From Myxococcota bacterium (GTDB taxonomy: Bacteria > Myxococcota_A > UBA796 > GCA-2862545): DNA of 64,000 bases. Where the stretch lies: positions 13,944 to 77,943 of the forward strand of contig JBCCQY010000020.1 of assembly GCA_039208735.1 (NCBI GenBank). Reading direction: 5' to 3'. The translations under genes and the position numbers were made by a program. The notes under the pieces are model-generated. The model saw only the letters and a program-made list of their open reading frames with translations, had not been told where the DNA came from and made no database searches. Each line of letters starts with the position of its first letter. Position 1 is the stretch's first letter. Shown one piece after another: positions 253 through 11,883 of this stretch.

Positions 253-3057
253 ATGGATTCGTTGCGTACGACTCGTCGGCAAGGGGGTCAACCGATGACT
301 CTGACTGCGCTCACGGCACTGTTGGGCTGCCTGCTGGGGCCAGTGGGGGCGCAGGCCCAGACCTACCGCACGGACGTGGAGTTGGGGAATCCGGTTGAGG
401 TCACGGCCGGCGACGTGACCCTGCGGGTCGACGCGGGCTCCTGGGTGGGGTGGGCCACCTACGACATTCACTACTTTCGGGCCACCTGCACGGAGGGAAA
501 CCAGGACTGCTCGGATAAGGTGGATTGGTCGACGACCTACGGGCACTTCGAGCACGTGAGGACCGCCGCAAACGATGGCCTTGAACTCACCGAGCTTCGG
601 GTCTACTCGCCAGTCTACCGTCCACAGAACCGGTTCAATCGGTCCGTCGTCATGTGGTCCTCGGATTTGGACGCACGCAGAGATCGTCAGGCGGTAAAGA
701 ACAACCCCACCACGGGAGTGCTGACGCTGTCGTATCGGGGTGTATCGATCGAGGTACCGCTTACGGCGTACTCGATCCTCGATGAAGACAATCCGCTTCC
801 GGTCGCTTGGAATCAACCGGCGAACTTGAAGACGCTCTTCGGCGTGGGCTTCGGGGACCCGGGTTCCGATAGCTACCTGGGATTGACCGAATTCATCCAG
901 GGCGACTACCTGAATGACTTGACCTACCAGCAGGGCCAACTGCAGGCCATGAAGTCCGTGTCAGACCGATTGAAGGCCGAGATTATTGCTTGGCATCAGG
1001 GAAATCAAGAGCCCTACATCCTTCCCGAAAGCGTCTTTGACTACACCAAGCCGGCCACCGCCCGCCCCTCGTTCACCTCACGCTCGTTGTCGGGGCCGCG
1101 CCAACGGTGGAAACTCGTCCGTTGGACGGACGTGGATGCCGAATCGATGGCTCGGGCGCTTGAGACGCGTCCCGCCGACCCCTATGAGAACGTGCGCCAA
1201 GTGGGGGGACGCGGTCTCTTCCCCGACGCGAATGCGACCTACATTCGCTACAATTATGTCGCGCCGTTCGACTCGACCCTGATTATCAAGGGCCAGTTCC
1301 CACACGCGCGATTCATGAGTTTCGAGAATAGCCAGCCCCCCATTCCCTCGCAGCCCACGGGAACTGCGGGCTCCGGTGGACCGGAGGTGCCGATTACCGA
1401 CGCGGACATTTTGCCCGACCCTGGAAGCATCAACCCGTTTGTGGCGGGTGCAGACCGGACGGCCACCCAGCGCGACTACACCGTCGCGTTCCACCATCCG
1501 CTGACGATGATCACGGATGCCAGCGGTAATCTCGTGGATGATCCACGAAAGGGCATCGATCTGAACGAGCAAAACTGCCCGGGTTCGTTTCAGGAGAGCC
1601 GTCCGGCGTATCGGTGCCACGAGCCTGCCCTTTTCATGCCGGGGATTCCGCGGTCGAACGTGCGCATTGCAGGGAACATGCGTACGGGAGGTGGCATGAC
1701 GGATGGGGAGCTTCTTCCTGCTTAGTTGTGGCTCCGCTATTATGCGCCCGATGCACCTACTGGCGTCGTTAACTACGATCCCTACGGTGGCGTGGAGATT
1801 CCCATCGCCTACTTTGAGGCCACCTGGAACGGACAGACGTACCGTTGGGGGCTTGAGCTGGTTCGGGGGCCCGGTTCGGCCATCAATGCAGAGGATGACG
1901 GCGAACAACGGGACCGAATCGTGCGTTTTCTCTCGTCCCCGGTGTCACCCAACGATCCTCCTCTGACTGTGACGCCGGCTTCTGTTGGCGCGGGCAGTGC
2001 CGTTGGTTTCACGAAAGGCTTTCACATTCCGCGGGCGTTCGCGGTGGCGGCGGCGAAGGTTGCCGAAGCTCAGGGGGGCTTGCTCGCCTTGCTTCTGACC
2101 GACGAGAGCCTGCGAACCATCGACGCGAAGGCTTTCGGCAAGGGGTACGCGAAGCTCAACGGAAAGAAGAAGTTGGGGGGAAATGCGACCGGAGGGGTGT
2201 TGCCCGTGGCAGGGCCCGGAACGTACGAGTCGCACTCGACGGCCTCGAATTCGATCCACTACACGGGCCGTACAATGGCGGTGGAGCAAGGCTACGTGGT
2301 CGTCGTGACGGGTCGAGCCCCGACCACGCCGACGACCCTAGGCGGTGATGCGACCATGGGGGCGGGCACTGACATGCGCTACTGGTCGTTCACGCACTAC
2401 TGCACAGGCCCTGTGCTGGACGATGCCACCACCATCTTGCGGACGTCACCCTTCAGCGGGTTGAACTGTGGCTCGTTGCAAGACGAGCAAGTCACGACCG
2501 TGAGCCGAGGCGATGAGGAATGGTACGCCATCGTCTTGTCCCAGCCCGAGGATCGGCCGAGCCTGGCCACCAGGGGACGAGGATTCACCTGGCAAGATTG
2601 GGGCCCGACGCCCGTGCAGCCTACCGGCTTCCGATGGATGGCGATTGGCGAGCGCCCGGGCGTAGACCAGCCTGGTGAGGCGTGGGCGAATTACGGCACG
2701 CTCGGTGACACAGTGGCCAACAGTAGCGTGATTGTGCCAGACATTGAGAACCTTCCCTTCGTCACCTCATTTGGCGAGGGCAGCTGTGGCAATGATTGGC
2801 GGGAATTGTGCGCGAAAAGCGCCGATCCTTTGGCACCGCGTGGGTATCAGGACCTCGACACCAGCTGGAGCGCCCGCACGCGGACCGATGAAAATGATGC
2901 GTTCACCTTTATCGGCAAGAATGAGCGCACGGAGTCCGTAATGAAGGACTACCATCCCGAGTATCACTATCTGACGAAAGAGCAGTTTGATGCTTTATCG
3001 TCTGCGGAGCGTCGTCCATGGGACTTTGGTGGTGGACAGTATAAGACGGGGTGGTAA
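253..3057 (+). pseudogene. large secreted hypothetical protein (~930 aa) split by one in-frame TAG at 1723-1725
   Basis: Strong SD and ATG 253, signal peptide (LTALTALLGCLLGPVGAQA-QT). ORFs 154..1725 and 1726..3057 are in the same frame, separated only by TAG (GELLPA*LWLRYYAPD). No RBS in front of the second half. Confidence 0.7.
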
Positions 3058-3396
3058 CCAGCTTGCCGTCGCTGAGCGACGGCAAGCTGGCCCGCGTAGG
3101 CCTGCAGGCGCAGAGCGCCGAAGGCCAGCGGGTGTCCGTCCTTTGCACACCTTTGGTGCGGAGCGACGGCAAGCTGGCCCGCGTAGGCCTGCAGGCGCAG
3201 AGCGCCGAAGGCCAGCGGGTGTCCGTCCTTTGCACACCTTTGGTGCGGAGCGACGGCAAGCTGGCCCGCGTAGGTCTGCCGGCGCAGAGCGCCGAAGGCC
3301 AGCGGGTGTCCGTCCTTTGCACACCTTTGGTGCAGAGCGACGGCAAGCTGGCCCACGAGGTCTGCCGGCGCAGAGCGCCGGAGGCCAGCGGGTGTC
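3058..3396. repeat. intergenic array of 87-bp structured tandem repeats (~3.7 copies) headed by a perfect 16-bp inverted repeat; REP/BIME-like
   Basis: Units start at 3074, 3161, 3248, 3335 (GAGCGACGGCAAGCTGG...). CCAGCTTGCCGTCGCT-G-AGCGACGGCAAGCTGG spans 3058-3090. Confidence 0.9.
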
Positions 3397-4391: not shown

Positions 4392-5360
4392 TTAAGGCCT
4401 TGACCGGAGCCACGTGATGGTGTCCCGCAACGTGGTGTCCCCATCGGGCGGGCTCCACCCTAGGCGATCGGCGAAGCGCGTCCGAAGACCCCACCAGTGG
4501 CGTCCCATTTCAACGAGCACGGGATCGGGAATCCCGATGGGCAGCGCCAATCGGCGCTGGACCCGGGCGGCGGTGTGCACGACACGCCAGGGCAAGACCC
4601 ATTGGGGGGCTCGAACCCCGCCGATGCGAGCGATGCGATCGGCGAACTCCCGAAGCGAACAGGCCGTCCCCGGGAGGTGAACGACCGGGGGTGGAGCGGG
4701 GTCTGAGGCCAGGGTGACGAGGGCCTCCGCTGCCGCCCGGACGTCGACCCAGTGCACGCCACCTTCCACCAGGGCCGGAAGTCGTCCGTCCAAGATTCGG
4801 GTCACGTGGCGAGCGGAGCGGCCCGTCGGATCGTCGGGCCCCAGCAGAATCGGGGGTCGAACGATGATCAAGGGCACGCCAAGCTCGTCGGCCCGAGCGC
4901 GCGCCTGCCGTTCGGCCCTCACCTTCGACGCATAGTAGGGCCAATGCTGGACGCGGTGCCAGACGTAGGGGCTTTGTTCATCCGCCCAACCGTCGGGGTC
5001 GTCGAACACCCCGACCGTGCCCGAGGTGCTCACGAACACGACCCGCGCTCCGAGACGCGCCGCAAGTTCGACGATGGCTACCGTGCCGTCGACGTTCACG
5101 CGGTGGGTTTCCTGGGCCTGGCCTCGGGAATGGTCGACCTTGGCGGCAAGATGCAGGATGGTGTCCACGCCATCGAGCTTGGGATGCCCGGCCCAGGCTT
5201 GTGGACGCTCGATCGCGCCCGGAATCTGAAACACGCCGTCTACAGGTTCCGGACGACGGCACAATCCCACGAGCTGGGTGTCCGGAACGCGTCGTTGCAA
5301 CGCCCGGACCGTGTGTCGACCAAGCAATCCGGTGACGCCGGTGATCAACACTCGGTTCAT
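4392..5360 (-). CDS. NAD-dependent epimerase/dehydratase family (extended SDR)
   Basis: MNRVLITGVTGLLG Rossmann motif, HLAA, VSTSG, YYASK catalytic motif; ATG 5360 overlaps the upstream stop (ATGA). Confidence 0.88.
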   Translation of the reverse strand: MNRVLITGVTGLLGRHTVRALQRRVPDTQLVGLCRRPEPVDGVFQIPGAIERPQAWAGHPKLDGVDTILHLAAKVDHSRGQAQETHRVNVDGTVAIVELAARLGARVVFVSTSGTVGVFDDPDGWADEQSPYVWHRVQHWPYYASKVRAERQARARADELGVPLIIVRPPILLGPDDPTGRSARHVTRILDGRLPALVEGGVHWVDVRAAAEALVTLASDPAPPPVVHLPGTACSLREFADRIARIGGVRAPQWVLPWRVVHTAARVQRRLALPIGIPDPVLVEMGRHWWGLRTRFADRLGWSPPDGDTTLRDTITWLRSRP

Positions 5361-7900
5361 TTGGCGGCATCTTCCGGAGAGAACATCGATACGCTCGCTC
5401 GATCCGCCTTGGGATGAAGGACCCCGTCGCGTTGCTCGAGATTGCCACGGGCGATCATCCAATCGATGGCGGCGTTGACTTCGTCGGGCCAAGCATTGCT
5501 GGCGAGCCGCACCACGTTTTGGCGTTCGATGGGTCCCTGCATGACGATGGCTTCGGTCTGGCTCCAGTCGTCGACCACGGAGCGTGCGAGGGCTCGTGCG
5601 GCTTCGCGCATGGTGGGATCGACATCGATGGGAGCGTTGGTGGACGCACTGAACGACGTGCGACGTAGATGATCCGCAATGGCCGGATGAGAGTCCGCCA
5701 TCGCAGCAAGTTCACGCGCCGCGTGGTGCTGCCAATGGGGCCGCATCCAGCGCTCCTCGGCGTCGCTGACGGTCGCGGTGGTGGAGGATTCCAGCACATG
5801 CGCGCCGCGGGCTTCGAGACTTCGGCGAAGCGCCGCCGCAGAGACCCCTGACCGCTTCTCGAACGCGTCGAGGTGGTAGGTCGTGGTGACCATAGCTTGT
5901 TGCTGGCGTTCTTGGGTTTGGGCCACGACCTCGGCCACGTCCGACTCGACGTCGAGTCGCAGTGGCTCCCCGGCGGCAAGGTGCATGCGGCCTAGATCGA
6001 CGTCGCCGCGGTAGGCCTTTTTGAGCCAGCCGCCCAACCCCTGCAGCGTCATGGCTTCCTTGTCTCCACCACGCAATTCCTGTAGCAGCGGTCCCGCGTC
6101 GGGAATGCGGTCGTACGAAAGGGCAAGCGGCAGCACCATGAACGGCTCCCGCGTGGCCTGGAGGCTTCGCAAGACCCCACGACGAGCCTTTAGGAAAGCC
6201 CCACTGCGGCTGCGTTGTCCTTCGATGAAGACCTGAATGACCGGGTTGCGGGCCACCTGCTCGGCAATCATCCGGGTGAGGTTGGCGTCGGCCGCACCCT
6301 GACCGCGGTGGAGATAGAACGCCCCCATGTTGGCAAACGCCGTTCCCAAAATGGGAATGCGGGAGAATGCAGCCGCCGCTGCGATGGCGGGCAGCGGCAG
6401 ATGGACTTCGGGCAGCGCGTGCAAGGCGTAGCTGATGAGGAGAAAGTCGACGTAGCTTCTATGATTGGGGCAAATCAGGATGTTGCTTTCGGGCGGAATG
6501 GCTTCGATCGCGGCTTCAAGGCTGTCCACATCGACGGTGGCTTGTTCCACGCATTGACGTGCCGTCGTCCGCAGGAGCAGCCCGAATCCCCGTTGCAGTG
6601 TCGATGCAGCCCCAGGACGCAGGGCCCATCGGGCGTCGGACCCCGAGCTGCGGCGTCCGGCAATCGGAACGGCACGGCTGTTTCCCCGCAGGAGGTGTTC
6701 GTGAACCCCTGCCGCCACTTGATCGAGGTAGACCTGTCGGTCGAAGTCGGGAGGCAGCACACCGCCCTCGAAGTGCCACGACTCCGACATGAAGGTCCGG
6801 AAGGTCTCGTCGAGGCCCCGAACGCGTTGCCGAGCCCGCATCGCTCGCCTTGCCCGGCCCGATTGACCTGACAACCGGGCAAGCCCCTCCTCGTAGTAGA
6901 GCGGCGCTTGCTGGAAGATGTGTCGAACGACGCCGCGTGACAGGCCCGCAGGGAGTGCGACGAGCTTCGGGGTGGAGCGAACGGGCCGGTTGCGAAGACG
7001 ACGAATCGTCCACTGCTGGTGTTCTTCGATGCTTGGGCTGTTGGCCGGGCCCGCGACCACCTGAACGATGCGATCGGGCGTATCGAGCGCGGCCACGACC
7101 TGTTCCGCCACGATGTCGACCGGGATCAGATCGAGCCTCGTGGCTGGGGAACCCTCGAGCACCCGGTACAGGCCCGCACCGATCGCCGCGACCATTCCAG
7201 CGTGGGCGGCCGCGCTGTCGACCCAACCAGGGATGGGCCAGCGCCACGCCACACTCACGATGCTGGGACGGACGAGCACCAGCGCGGCATGTTGCTGCCG
7301 CTCGTCCAACCGATGTTCCGCCAGGCACTTCGTGAGGGTGTAGGAGTTTGGATGCCCGGTCTTTGCCGATGCGGCTTTCGCGTCGACGCGCGCTTCCTCA
7401 CAGAGCGCCTTGGCGGAAGCGGGAAGCGCCACCAACTCTGGTCCATGCCGTTCCGTCAGCGGCGGGTGGACGTAGGCGGTCGACACACTGACGAGCCGTT
7501 CCGCGCGTGCCGCCTCTGCGAGATCTTGAACCCGCAAGGCACCGTCGACGTTGATGGCCATCGCTTGGTCGCCCGGGAGGTCGAAGCGCACCGAGGCCGC
7601 GAGGTGAACCACATGCGTGACGTCTCGCTCAAGGGCTCGTCGAAGGTCAGGCGGAATGGCGAGGTCCGAGGCGCGCAAGTCTCCAGGGACGGCGTGCACA
7701 CGTTCGCGACGCTCTCGGGGGAGATCTCGAAGGGGCAACGTGCGAAGCAGCCGCTCGATGCGCGACTGGGCCCGCGCTGGCTGGTCGGCGGGCCGGACGA
7801 GGGCGTACACCCGACTTACCGAGTCATCTTCAAGCAGCCTACGGAGCACCAGCTTGCCGATGAAGCCGGTGGCTCCGGTCAAAAACACGACGCGTTTCAT
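5357..7900 (-). CDS. fatty acyl-CoA reductase (male-sterility type) fused to a glycerol-3-phosphate/DHAP acyltransferase (FARAT-like)
   Basis: N half: TGATGFIG, HLAASVRFD, VSTAYV, HPNSYTLTK, RPSIV, PIPGWVD, DLIPVD. C half: PNHRSYVDFLL (HxxxxD), GAFYLHR, FIEGQRSRSG, LSYDRI. Confidence 0.88.
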   Translation of the reverse strand: MKRVVFLTGATGFIGKLVLRRLLEDDSVSRVYALVRPADQPARAQSRIERLLRTLPLRDLPRERRERVHAVPGDLRASDLAIPPDLRRALERDVTHVVHLAASVRFDLPGDQAMAINVDGALRVQDLAEAARAERLVSVSTAYVHPPLTERHGPELVALPASAKALCEEARVDAKAASAKTGHPNSYTLTKCLAEHRLDERQQHAALVLVRPSIVSVAWRWPIPGWVDSAAAHAGMVAAIGAGLYRVLEGSPATRLDLIPVDIVAEQVVAALDTPDRIVQVVAGPANSPSIEEHQQWTIRRLRNRPVRSTPKLVALPAGLSRGVVRHIFQQAPLYYEEGLARLSGQSGRARRAMRARQRVRGLDETFRTFMSESWHFEGGVLPPDFDRQVYLDQVAAGVHEHLLRGNSRAVPIAGRRSSGSDARWALRPGAASTLQRGFGLLLRTTARQCVEQATVDVDSLEAAIEAIPPESNILICPNHRSYVDFLLISYALHALPEVHLPLPAIAAAAAFSRIPILGTAFANMGAFYLHRGQGAADANLTRMIAEQVARNPVIQVFIEGQRSRSGAFLKARRGVLRSLQATREPFMVLPLALSYDRIPDAGPLLQELRGGDKEAMTLQGLGGWLKKAYRGDVDLGRMHLAAGEPLRLDVESDVAEVVAQTQERQQQAMVTTTYHLDAFEKRSGVSAAALRRSLEARGAHVLESSTTATVSDAEERWMRPHWQHHAARELAAMADSHPAIADHLRRTSFSASTNAPIDVDPTMREAARALARSVVDDWSQTEAIVMQGPIERQNVVRLASNAWPDEVNAAIDWMIARGNLEQRDGVLHPKADRASVSMFSPEDAAK

Positions 7901-9795
7901 GAGCGCTCACTCAACCCTTGGTTTCCAACACCGAAGATGTCGTGTGGGTCGACAGCCTGCTTCAATTTGCGGCGCAGGGTCGTGCGCCCGTCGTCCTCTG
8001 CGCGATGGAGCCACGGGGTCCGCGTCTGACCGATTCCATGATGGTGGGAAACCGCGGCTCCATGGGTCAGCATGGCTTCTCGCGCGGCCCCTTCGAGGGC
8101 ATGCCAGGCGGCGGACGGATCCTCGACCTGCTTGTAGACGAAGCCCACGTAGAAGTACGTGCACACGCCTTCTGGGTAGATTTGGGAGATTCGCGAGGTC
8201 ACGAAAGGGCGCCCCGGGAGCCCCAGTTCGGCATGCCGATCGCGAATGGCCTGCTTGACGGCGGCGATCATGGGCATCGCGTTGCGCCAGCTCACCGAGG
8301 TTTCGAACGACTCGCCCCACACCCAGTGCTCGAGCATGTAGTCGCGGATGTAGGCGATGGCGAAGGTCAGTCGATAGCCATCGGCCCCTCGGCTGCTACC
8401 TCCGTCGATGCCGCCAAACTGTTCGGCGATCGCTCGGACCGTCTTTTGCTGACGTTCAACCAGTTCTTGCGAACCCTCGTAGACCACCGTTGCGGCGGAC
8501 ACCTCGGAAAGGTCGAAGCCGTGCCACCGCTGCAGGACTTGTTGTTGGAGCCACTTGAGGGGAAGGTCGCGTCGCCGAGGGGCCGGTTTTAGGGCCTGGG
8601 CGAAGGCCAGCTGGTCGTTGTCGACAAGGCGAACGCTCGCCGGAACATCGCCGTGTTGCGTCAAGGCGTACAGAAAGCCAACCCCGGCCGCGAAGTCAGG
8701 GAACGCGATGGATCCGTAGCGCTGGACCTCCGGCAATCGGTGCAACCGGACCTTCGCCTCGGTGATCACGCCCAACGTGCCTTCAGAGCCGAACCAGAGG
8801 GTCTCGGGGTCGATCCCATGCGACGTTCGGGGTACCCCGGTGAAGGCGCCGACCTCGCCCGCTGCAGTCACGCCATCGGCTTGGAGCACGACCTGCTCGA
8901 TGTTGCCGTAACGATTGCGCTTCATGCCACTCGCCCGCGTCGCGACCCAACCGCCCAGCGTCGAGAACTCGATGCTGTCGGGCTCGTGGCCTAGCGTAAA
9001 GCCGTGTTCGGCGAGCTGTTCGGCGATGACGCGTCCCACCGCTCCCGCTTGGATGCAGGCCACCGCGTCGACCGGATCGATCCATCGAACCCGGCTCATC
9101 CGTGCAAGATCGATCGAGATGATGATCCGAGACTCGACGTCGTGGCACTGCAACGCACCGGTCACGCTCGTTCCCCCGCCGAAGGGGATGCACGTGGCTT
9201 CGTGGTGGGCGGCCGTGCGAACGATCGCGGCGACCTCCTCCGTCGACTCGGGCATCACCACGATGTCGGGGGCTCGGGCCAGTCGACCGTAGTTGACGGT
9301 GTAGATCTCGGATGCCGTGTGGCCGTGACCATGTCGGACGCGGGTTGGGCCATCCGTGAACATCCGGTCGCCTACGATCTGCTCAAGAGCTCGTTCTAGC
9401 GCCGGATCCGACCGACGCTCTGGAGCGTGAGGCTCGGCAAGGGGGACGTGGCGGTCTTCGGCGGACAGCTCGAAGCCAAGCACGTCGCGAGCAAACTTGG
9501 TCAGGGCGGGCAGCGCCACCCCACACAGCGGATACCGATTGCCTTGCAGACGCGGGGCGCCAGAACGATCCCAGACGAACCGCGTGTCGTCGAAACCCCA
9601 ACGCCGGGCCGCGGGGGCATCCGCACGAGGAATCGCGGTGGGCGGCGGGTAGATCCGGTGGGCGCCAAGGGTCTCGGCCACGGTGGAGGTGAATGTGCGT
9701 CCGAGCCACTGCCGAAAGCGGCTTCGAAAAGAGGGTTTCGTTGGTGTGGGACGGACCACGGGGCCTCCGAGAGCCAGGTCGATCGACCAAATCAC
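7897..9795 (-). CDS. agpS: alkyldihydroxyacetonephosphate synthase (FAD-linked oxidase family)
   Basis: HGHGH, IPFGGGTSVTGAL, GHEPDSIEFSTLGGWVATRASGMKRNRYGNIE, GSEGTLGVIT, SHHHGIG motifs typical of AGPS. Start uncertain (GTG 9795, or GTG 9759 after GGAGG). Confidence 0.88.
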   Translation of the reverse strand: MIWSIDLALGGPVVRPTPTKPSFRSRFRQWLGRTFTSTVAETLGAHRIYPPPTAIPRADAPAARRWGFDDTRFVWDRSGAPRLQGNRYPLCGVALPALTKFARDVLGFELSAEDRHVPLAEPHAPERRSDPALERALEQIVGDRMFTDGPTRVRHGHGHTASEIYTVNYGRLARAPDIVVMPESTEEVAAIVRTAAHHEATCIPFGGGTSVTGALQCHDVESRIIISIDLARMSRVRWIDPVDAVACIQAGAVGRVIAEQLAEHGFTLGHEPDSIEFSTLGGWVATRASGMKRNRYGNIEQVVLQADGVTAAGEVGAFTGVPRTSHGIDPETLWFGSEGTLGVITEAKVRLHRLPEVQRYGSIAFPDFAAGVGFLYALTQHGDVPASVRLVDNDQLAFAQALKPAPRRRDLPLKWLQQQVLQRWHGFDLSEVSAATVVYEGSQELVERQQKTVRAIAEQFGGIDGGSSRGADGYRLTFAIAYIRDYMLEHWVWGESFETSVSWRNAMPMIAAVKQAIRDRHAELGLPGRPFVTSRISQIYPEGVCTYFYVGFVYKQVEDPSAAWHALEGAAREAMLTHGAAVSHHHGIGQTRTPWLHRAEDDGRTTLRRKLKQAVDPHDIFGVGNQGLSERS

Positions 9796-9972: not shown

Positions 9973-10809
9973 TCAGCCCTCTGTTCCCTCGAACAAGGGG
10001 GTGAGTTCTCGAAGCGCACCGGCGAGATGCTGCAGGAGTGTGCGGACGCGCGCCGAACGCCGCAGGTCGGCGTGGGTCAGCACCCACAGTGACGAGTTGG
10101 TCGCCGCGAGAGTCCCCGGGACGCGCTCGATCCCAGGTGTCCGATCCCCGACGAAGCAGGGGAGGATGCAGCGGCCGACCCCCGATGCGACGGCTCGGGC
10201 CTGCAGGGCGGCCGAGTCGAAGCGGGCCACGACGGGCACATCGTCTGGGGTGACGTCGAGACGCCTCATGAAACCAGACCACCCGATCCAGTGCGAAGGG
10301 CGGGTGCCGATCGCGACATACTGAGCGCCCCAGATCTCGCAGATTCTTCGCCCCACCGCGCTTCCTGGAGGACCGGGGCTGCCGCGAACCGAGAGATCGG
10401 CCTCATTGCGGTCGAGGTTCCGCACTTCGTTTGCTGCGAAGACCTCGAGTTCGATCCGCGGATGTTCGTTTATGAACGCTTGGAGAGGTTCGATCAGGCA
10501 ATCGGCGAGGACATCGGCCGTGGCGATCCGCACGGTACCTTCGAGTTCAAGGTCCTCTCCGGACGCTCGACGGGAGAGCAAGGCGACTTCGGCCTCCACA
10601 CGCTCGGCGTGGAGTCGCACCGCCTCGGCGGCCTCAGACTGGACGAGGCCCCGAGCGCTCCGGACGAACAGCGGGGTGCCGAGTTCGTCCTCGAGGGCGC
10701 GGATGCGACGGCTTACCGTCGACTGGTTGACACCAAGGTCGGCGGCGGCCGAGGTCAACGAACCAGCTCTCACCGCAGCCAGAAAGTAGCGAATGTCGTC
10801 CCAGTCCAC
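9973..10809 (-). CDS. LysR family transcriptional regulator
   Basis: MDWDDIRYFLAAVRAGSLTSAAADLGVNQSTVSRRIRALE HTH plus substrate-binding domain. Confidence 0.95.
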   Translation of the reverse strand: MDWDDIRYFLAAVRAGSLTSAAADLGVNQSTVSRRIRALEDELGTPLFVRSARGLVQSEAAEAVRLHAERVEAEVALLSRRASGEDLELEGTVRIATADVLADCLIEPLQAFINEHPRIELEVFAANEVRNLDRNEADLSVRGSPGPPGSAVGRRICEIWGAQYVAIGTRPSHWIGWSGFMRRLDVTPDDVPVVARFDSAALQARAVASGVGRCILPCFVGDRTPGIERVPGTLAATNSSLWVLTHADLRRSARVRTLLQHLAGALRELTPLFEGTEG

Positions 10810-10823
10810 TCAGGTCCCCAAGC

Positions 10824-10850
10824 CATGCGTGTATGCATGACTCTAATGCA
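10824..10850. promoter_or_regulatory. putative LysR binding site in divergent intergenic region
   Basis: Overlapping dyads CATGC-N6-GCATG (10824-10839) and TGCAT-N7-ATGCA (10834-10850) between the LysR gene and the divergent gene. Confidence 0.4.
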
Positions 10851-10926
10851 AATTGGGTCGTGGATCCGCATCTGTGCATTGGTCATGAAGCTTCGGGAGC
10901 TCGAATGCTTCCGAGGAGGATTTCCG

Positions 10927-11883
10927 ATGAGTCGATTCATGCTTGTGTCGTTGACGCTGGCCCTAGGGGCATGCGCAAACGTCGCGTCCATTCCACTGCT
11001 CGGCAACGCCACATACCCCGAGGGCATTGCGGCTCACGCGCACACCCAAGAACTCTTCGTTGGGGGAGTGGCCAATGGCGATATCCAGCGCGTCGATGCC
11101 CAGGGAGAGGTCACCTTCTTCAAGGAGGCCCATGAGGATGGCTTGGCCAACGTGATTGGGCTGGCCGTCGACCCCGAACGGAACCGGCTGTTCGTGTGCT
11201 CGACTTCGTTCTTCGATCCAACCGTGGCACCTTCCCTCGTGGTATTCGATACGGTGACGGGAGATCGTCTCGCATCGCTGTCTGCACCCGACGACGGTTT
11301 GCCGCACTTCTTCAACGATGTCGCCGTAGATAGCGCAGGTCGCGCCTACGTCACCGACTCGTTTGCCCCCATTGTGTACACCGTGGGCGTCGAACTCGAG
11401 AGCCTCGACGTTCTCGCGACCGACCCCGCCTTCGTGCTCGACCCGCAGGGCTTCAACCTCAACGGCATTGCCATCACGACGGACGACCGCTTCGCGATTG
11501 CTTCGGTGGCAACCCTGGCCGGAATCGGGCAGCTGTTTCGGATCGGCCTCGATGATGGCTCCGTGCAGCCGCTCTCCACGCCAGCATCGTTCTCTGGGGT
11601 GGATGGTCTTCTCACGCTAAACGCTCGTACGATGGTTGGAATCGGGGGAAGTTCTTCGGTCCAGCGCTTCGACTTCAACGACAACTTCGACACCGTCAAC
11701 GTGACGAGCGTCCCTGAGGCCGACGAGTTCCTCGACTTTCCGACCACGGCAGCGCGGCTTGGCGCGCGGATTTTCGTCGTCAACAGCCAGTTGGACCATT
11801 TTGTGCCCGGCCAGCCAGCCTTCGGAACAGACCCGGAACTTCCGTTCGAAGTAGTTGGCTTTTCCAGCTGGTGGCTTCGTTAG
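10927..11883 (+). CDS. SMP-30/gluconolactonase-like beta-propeller lipoprotein
   Basis: SD GAGGAGGA, lipobox LGAC, motifs YPEGIA, FNDVAVDSAGRAYVTDS, LNGIAIT, FPTTA. Confidence 0.85.
   Translation: MSRFMLVSLTLALGACANVASIPLLGNATYPEGIAAHAHTQELFVGGVANGDIQRVDAQGEVTFFKEAHEDGLANVIGLAVDPERNRLFVCSTSFFDPTVAPSLVVFDTVTGDRLASLSAPDDGLPHFFNDVAVDSAGRAYVTDSFAPIVYTVGVELESLDVLATDPAFVLDPQGFNLNGIAITTDDRFAIASVATLAGIGQLFRIGLDDGSVQPLSTPASFSGVDGLLTLNARTMVGIGGSSSVQRFDFNDNFDTVNVTSVPEADEFLDFPTTAARLGARIFVVNSQLDHFVPGQPAFGTDPELPFEVVGFSSWWLR

Follow-up and report, generated by a model that had tools for sequence, protein, structure and literature searches.

A predicted ether-lipid operon of the MXAN_1676-1675-1674 type and its candidate reductase in a Myxococcota bacterium

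Can one compact operon equip a bacterium to make ether lipids in the manner of eukaryotic peroxisomes, and which of its proteins would perform the last reduction? This question is raised by three adjoining genes in a 64-kb stretch of DNA (the window) from contig JBCCQY010000020.1 of a Myxococcota bacterium (assembly GCA_039208735.1; the host genome, G000 in our set). They encode an alkylglycerone-phosphate synthase (AGPS), a fusion of a fatty acyl-CoA reductase (FAR) with an acyltransferase, and an extended short-chain dehydrogenase/reductase (SDR). Judged by sequence comparison, the operon is quite probably an orthologue of the Myxococcus xanthus genes MXAN_1676-1675-1674 that likely makes 1-O-alkyl-glycerol-3-phosphate by a dihydroxyacetone-phosphate (DHAP) route, with the SDR predicted to carry out the last reduction.

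Organization of the operon

Three successive stop-free frames occupy the minus strand of the window. The AGPS gene (7897–9795) encodes a FAD-dependent protein of 632 amino acids when read from its longest GTG start; the true start is uncertain, as the GTG at 9795 is simply the longest choice and the matches of relatives mostly begin near residues 40–50. It is followed by the gene for a FARAT-type fusion of FAR with a PlsB/GNPAT-class acyltransferase (5357–7900, 847 amino acids) and by the extended SDR gene (4392–5360, 322 amino acids). As a sequence-only reading of this DNA had claimed, successive genes are joined by ATGA overlaps, in which the AGPS stop meets the FARAT start (7897–7900) and the FARAT stop meets the SDR start (5357–5360). 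The same reading had named the three products as an AGPS, an 847-residue FAR-acyltransferase fusion and an extended SDR, and Pfam, phmmer and motif searches agree with it; the models that it had proposed as a check (NAD_binding_4, Acyltransferase and FAD-oxidase_C) were all matched in Pfam.

M. xanthus carries the same three genes with the same order, strand arrangement and domain make-up. The AGPS is the counterpart of MXAN_1676, the fusion is an orthologue of MXAN_1675 (plsB2), and the SDR is an orthologue of the gene adjoining MXAN_1675. Compared directly through the fusion and the SDR, the two operons differ only by sequence divergence and genome context.

The M. xanthus operon has been described before. 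It comprises MXAN_1676 (AGPS), MXAN_1675 (a FAR-GNPAT fusion) and MXAN_1674 (NAD-dependent epimerase/dehydratase family), and disruption of MXAN_1676 causes only a slight drop in ether lipids, the main route being that of ElbD; inactivation of elbE also leaves fewer ether lipids (PMC9131029). The residual alkyl ether phospholipid of M. xanthus lacking elbD requires MXAN_1676 (PMC9131029, PMC13012113). A second study draws the same operon (legend of Fig. 1B), names the fusion FARAT, counts 73 bacterial genomes with the four-enzyme pathway, of which 61 belong to Myxococcota, and uses the operon to argue that the eukaryotic ether-lipid pathway came from myxobacteria (PMC13012113). MXAN_1675 has also been named plsB2 (PMC4320627), and MXAN_1675/1676 "seem to be involved" in making homospermidine lipids (PMC9548883, there citing Hoffmann 2018). 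Homologues of agps and elbD have been surveyed (PMC13159169, PMC11868695, bioRxiv 10.64898/2026.06.23.733905), and nothing further on the MXAN_1675/1676 operon genes was found in the available portions of PMC10196010 and PMC12288465.

The operon type is thus already known from M. xanthus, and a further copy matters little. What is new here is the comparative pattern around the SDR, namely an SDR clade linked to AGPS, loci in which the SDR directly follows AGPS with no fusion, replacement by classical SDRs, and motifs common with ElbE, a sequence pattern that supports a role as alkyl-DHAP reductase.

The first three steps of the proposed route are, from homology, very probable. The FAR half would reduce a fatty acyl thioester to a fatty alcohol with NADPH, the acyltransferase half would form 1-acyl-DHAP, and the AGPS flavin would swap the acyl chain for the alcohol to give alkyl-DHAP. 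In the fourth step, the SDR would reduce the C2 ketone to yield alkyl-glycerol-3-phosphate, to be turned into finished lipid by the usual sn-2 acyltransferases and by head-group enzymes.

AGPS and the FAR-acyltransferase fusion

By similarity, the FAD-dependent protein is an AGPS, closer to characterised AGPS than to D-lactate, glycolate or 2-hydroxyglutarate dehydrogenases. It carries the Pfam domains FAD_binding_4 and FAD-oxidase_C, and in phmmer searches of the PDB it matches guinea-pig AGPS (E = 4.4e-135) and Dictyostelium ADPS (7.7e-87), followed by a best non-AGPS match at 4.7e-24 and by glycolate, lactate and hydroxyglutarate dehydrogenases at 1e-21 or weaker. The corresponding bit scores are 455 and 295 for the characterised AGPS and at most 88 for other PDB proteins. 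The sequence-only reading had allowed that the protein might instead group with D-lactate/glycolate oxidases; it groups with AGPS, and an oxidase of that kind is rejected because the AGPS matches are far stronger and the GlcD model scores 127 bits against a cut-off of 568.

Alignment places R389, R484 and Y547 opposite Dictyostelium R352, R447 and Y508 (with the PDB chain offset by 3 throughout), which are catalytically important (PMC3509576). Within a run of histidines at H584–586, H585 and H586 align with His616 and His617 of AGPS (PMC13019191), such that the catalytic Arg, Arg, Tyr and His-His-His of AGPS (EC 2.5.1.26) are all kept.

The fusion matches NAD_binding_4 at residues 7–267 (E = 1.5e-54) and Acyltransferase at residues 466–594 (E = 4e-19), with the FAR part occupying the N-terminal region (roughly residues 1–405). 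The motifs of both halves are intact: TGxxGxxG (8–15) and YxxxK (187–191) in the FAR, and HxxxxD (480–485) and FIEGxRSR (558–565) in the acyltransferase. The protein is 37% identical to MXAN_1675 across 824 amino acids (E = 8e-145), and its top PDB matches are a plant FAR and glycerol-3-phosphate acyltransferases (GPATs).

These proteins resemble the peroxisomal FAR1, GNPAT, AGPS and DHRS7B/Ayr1 pathway, in that the window AGPS is near the guinea-pig enzyme, and they resemble protist FARAT, in which the FAR is likewise N-terminal to the HxxxxD acyltransferase. In contrast, the window fusion is shorter than the single eukaryotic FARAT compared (847 versus 1242 amino acids) and, unlike it, lacks detectable Sterile and GPAT_C domains. 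The myxobacterial elbA-E cluster likewise combines a FAR, an acyltransferase and an extended SDR, although ElbD has extra ACS and ACP domains and the cluster has ElbC and no AGPS.

Conservation of the gene neighbourhood

To quantify clustering, we surveyed AGPS loci by using profiles built for this analysis; there were 120 confirmed relatives, of which the best 80 loci were kept. AGPS, FAR, acyltransferase and the window-type SDR occur together in 20 of the 80, one of them reordered, and because the same genes recur together at this frequency, the clustering is far beyond chance. The co-occurrence elsewhere on which the sequence-only reading had staked its case is therefore wide. One locus has AGPS, acyltransferase and SDR, and in eight the SDR immediately follows AGPS with no fusion present. 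A classical SDR stands immediately after AGPS in five loci and after the FAR gene in one, as counted with a profile built from the same sequences; Pfam adh_short was confirmed for all four classical SDRs checked, two of them among the five behind AGPS. The remaining loci show FAR only, acyltransferase only or other neighbours, or are cut by a contig end. When metagenome loci were instead anchored on MXAN_1675, the full set was found in 9 of 20.

The titles of the carriers among the 80 loci name Myxococcota, Sericytochromatia, Gemmatimonadota, Gammaproteobacteria, Spirochaetota and two archaeal metagenome-assembled genomes. Few genomes close to the host have the pathway: a FARAT orthologue turned up in none of 40 sampled relatives, and among 47 genomes of the same class none had a true AGPS, versus 33 of 250 in the phylum. 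Within the family, 2 of 49 genomes carry the operon pathway, namely the host and G322, in which AGPS and SDR are adjacent and FARAT lies on a separate contig.

The two archaeal contigs, whose titles carry the labels Thermoplasmatota (L003:3660-9923) and Poseidoniales (L023:3-5528) in that order, both hold AGPS and FARAT. On L003 the two genes stand some 100 bp upstream of an archaeal EF-2 (TIGR00490, 1065 bits, above cut-off), accompanied by a divergent classical SDR; on L023 the order is FARAT-SDR-AGPS, adjoining katG. A taxon-word search of the available supplements of PMC13012113 found no Thermoplasmatota row in its GNPAT dataset. A bacterial/eukaryotic-type alkyl-ether route would be odd in archaea, and L003 and L023 may be chimeric assemblies.

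In three further loci (L057:7862-9844, L060:1843-3939 and L071:7743-9851), AGPS is followed by a FAR protein of 660–700 amino acids, and Pfam recognises nothing in its C-terminal part at E = 1e-6. These proteins are possibly FARs fused to an unrecognised acyltransferase.

A candidate alkyl-DHAP reductase

The SDR has an Epimerase-type Pfam match and none to adh_short, with YxxxK at residues 142–146. Its best NCBIfam match is HpnA, and its best PDB matches are DFR/CCR-like. It is 41% identical over 318 amino acids (E = 7e-73) to a protein of M. xanthus DK1622, which is taken to be MXAN_1674 because its accessions run consecutively with those of MXAN_1675 in several strains; the locus tag is thus derived from accession order. 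The second beta-strand of the window SDR ends in an Arg, a feature associated with NADPH preference, and the protein also has the Ser and YxxxK.

A tree of 41 rows places the AGPS-linked SDRs, among them the window protein and that of M. xanthus, in a single clade (support 100/95); its sister group, with moderate support (93/78), consists of four ElbE-like proteins encoded in the elbCDE clusters of relatives. The motifs S[TS]SGT and WPYYxxK are common to AGPS-linked and ElbE-like SDRs, and are not present in the eight other host-genome SDRs of the tree. Identity between the window SDR and an ElbE-like protein is 37%.

The AGPS product, alkyl-DHAP, needs reduction before it can enter lipid synthesis. 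A reductase role fits the SDR because its occurrence goes with AGPS, not with FAR, and because a classical SDR can take its place; we somewhat favour the prediction that the window SDR is the alkyl-DHAP reductase. A broader proposal, to which we give less than even credence, is that the MXAN_1674-type extended SDR represents the missing bacterial alkyl/acyl-DHAP reductase, of a class unrelated to DHRS7B/Ayr1 and able to trade places with classical SDRs next to AGPS, and that its sister ElbE performs the same step. If ElbE does so, the unexplained ElbD route would also pass through alkyl-DHAP, with ElbC possibly replacing AGPS. No published assignment of a reductase role to MXAN_1674 or ElbE was found in the portions of the literature available, and Curtis 2006, Lorenzen 2014, Gallego-Garcia 2019 and Hoffmann 2018 may hold one. 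The comparative pattern names a specific, soluble and readily assayed reductase candidate that is tied to ElbE.

ElbC is described as being of "unknown function" (PMC9131029). The ElbC-like proteins upstream of elbD (L132:11341-12966 and L134:10747-12351) match the lactate-racemase N-terminal domain PF09861/Lar_N (E about 1e-37), hinting at a cofactor-based hydride chemistry that could replace AGPS.

Ether-lipid genes in the host genome

Whether the host has another route to ether lipids was judged from its assembly, on whose quality (92.7% complete, 6.2% contaminated) every absence reported here depends. The ElbC of relatives has no match in it, the ElbD of relatives matches only through generic ACS and acyltransferase domains, and no elbCDE cluster was found. 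The carF/PEDS1 family (PF10520) was not found either, and is present in 1 of 40 relatives. The sole strong NAD_binding_4 (FAR-type) match is the window fusion. Thus, whereas in M. xanthus ElbD is dominant and CarF makes plasmalogen, the host likely forms its ether lipids chiefly through the operon, whose products are likely plasmanyl rather than plasmalogen, as expected from the absence of both elbCDE and carF. A eukaryote-style route independent of ElbD, which the sequence-only reading had inferred and which is already a published interpretation, is supported by the protein identities and by gene co-occurrence. The occurrence of the operon without elb or carF suggests that in some Myxococcota-like lineages the supply of alkyl ether lipids depends on this operon, a point relevant to the identity of environmental alkyl-ether-lipid producers.

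Alternative explanations

What each gene of the operon encodes, the integrity of the motifs, the coupling of the genes and their conserved clustering are established, and the DHAP-route interpretation draws on the AGPS identity and residues, on the orthology of the fusion and its neighbour to MXAN_1675 and the adjoining gene, on locus clustering, and on the part that MXAN_1676 plays in forming the alkyl ether lipid of M. xanthus (PMC9131029). Several observations weigh against this interpretation, including the reliance on the host assembly noted above. The catalytic residues of AGPS are necessary for the assignment but do not by themselves identify an AGPS: a paralogue on contig C33 of the same genome, with 30% identity, keeps similar ones. 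The top NCBIfam match of the fusion acyltransferase is PlsB, below cut-off, which bears on its preference for DHAP or glycerol-3-phosphate. In a small, quick acyltransferase tree with one eukaryotic FARAT (P0100), and with poorly extracted ElbD and HAD-AT rows that are to be disregarded, the bacterial fusions do not group with P0100, which is placed weakly among PlsB-like rows. The operon is a minor route in M. xanthus (PMC9131029) and is also linked to homospermidine lipids (PMC9548883), and the available portions of the literature on these genes yielded neither enzyme assays of operon members nor in vitro proof of a bacterial FARAT, AGPS or alkyl-DHAP reductase.

As for the fourth step, known alkyl-DHAP reductases are classical SDRs of the DHRS7B/Ayr1 type (PMC13256971), and no relation to these was found for the window SDR, which is of the extended class and HpnA/DFR-like. 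In addition, AGPS, FAR and acyltransferase occur without the SDR in 10 of the 80 loci (one truncated), a third of the loci that have these three, and in G021 and G249 members of the SDR family (45–47% identity) are found on their own, apart from AGPS. The first three steps could thus be right while the SDR reduces or recycles fatty aldehyde or acts on a later lipid, with another cellular dehydrogenase reducing alkyl-DHAP. We consider this doubtful, though a real competitor, given that the SDR follows AGPS and not FAR (the eight AGPS-SDR-only loci) and that a classical SDR fills the same slot in five loci. Another reading, in which fatty alcohol, aldehyde or acyl units from the operon go mostly into secondary lipids (homospermidine lipids, wax esters or neutral storage ether lipids) and not into membrane phospholipids, would fit the homospermidine link, the minor effect of losing MXAN_1676 and the patchy distribution (2 of 49 family genomes). 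It is nonetheless improbable, as an intact AGPS is sensible only given acyl-DHAP and fatty alcohol, and MXAN_1676 is required for the alkyl ether phospholipid that remains without elbD. A further idea is that the operon took over the first phospholipid step after loss of plsB and plsY, so that the membrane would consist mostly of sn-1 ether lipids or be made via acyl-DHAP. The genes for phospholipid entry bear on this.

No long, GPAT_C-type PlsB was found in the host genome, versus 4 of 4 congeners, 47 of 47 sampled same-class genomes and 238 of 251 phylum genomes, and no PlsY was found, versus 3 of 4 congeners. The syntenic sites of the missing long plsB, plsY and a second GPAT_C gene (C226:2873-4275, C130:15237-19138 and C187 upstream of 6579) are on contigs free of Ns; those of plsB and plsY lie within contigs and are occupied by other genes. 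The sites on C226 and C187 were read, and yaaA stands at the plsB site; the plsY site holds a block with genes that we take to be TadE-like. Both long PlsB and PlsY are also absent from 8 of the 33 genomes (33 of the 80 loci) in which AGPS occurs with a window-type acyltransferase. However, the host has a gene for a short PlsB-like protein of about 520 amino acids (C35:30920-32632), coupled to a gpsA-like gene (pair at C35:30021-32632, locus L187), whose product falls below all NCBIfam cut-offs and is, from its sequence, likely an under-annotated sn-1 GPAT. This form is found in 42 of 49 family genomes, in 6 of those 8 AGPS-carrying genomes, and in all seven Sericytochromatia-type genomes tested, six of which are without both long PlsB and PlsY. 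Long PlsB persists in each of the phylum's 33 genomes that have a true AGPS, and the host retains two plsX genes and one gpsA. A search for plastid-type GPAT (PF14829) gave no match anywhere, controls included, and is uninformative. Because the conserved short PlsB-like gene is kept, sole control of lipid entry by the operon is unlikely, and the operon as the only entry to phospholipid synthesis is largely rejected; a takeover of the first step is very improbable.

Flanking features of the window

A LysR gene on the same strand lies 177 bp upstream of the operon, and a convergent, unrelated gene lies 65 bp from its 3′ side. Membership of the LysR gene in the operon is not supported; congener G002 carries the LysR gene without the operon. 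No sigma-70-like promoter was found for the operon, and terminator-like matches occur only at chance level.

Misbinning of the contig was rejected on three grounds. Its GC content is 63.4%, versus 63.9% for the whole genome; window positions 9986–11858 are 79% identical to a congener; and an 87-nt, REP-like unit, present in about four tandem intergenic copies at 3053–3396, has 61 matches over 43 contigs of the host genome. Because these three features agree, the contig carrying the operon looks native to the host genome. That genome contains 13 MYXO-CTERM matches, which together with the elb clusters of relatives suggest a Myxococcota-like bacterium.

Elsewhere in the window, two plus-strand open reading frames (154–1725 and 1726–3057) are adjacent and in the same reading frame with a single stop codon between them, and are possibly one split gene; neither has a match in NCBIfam.

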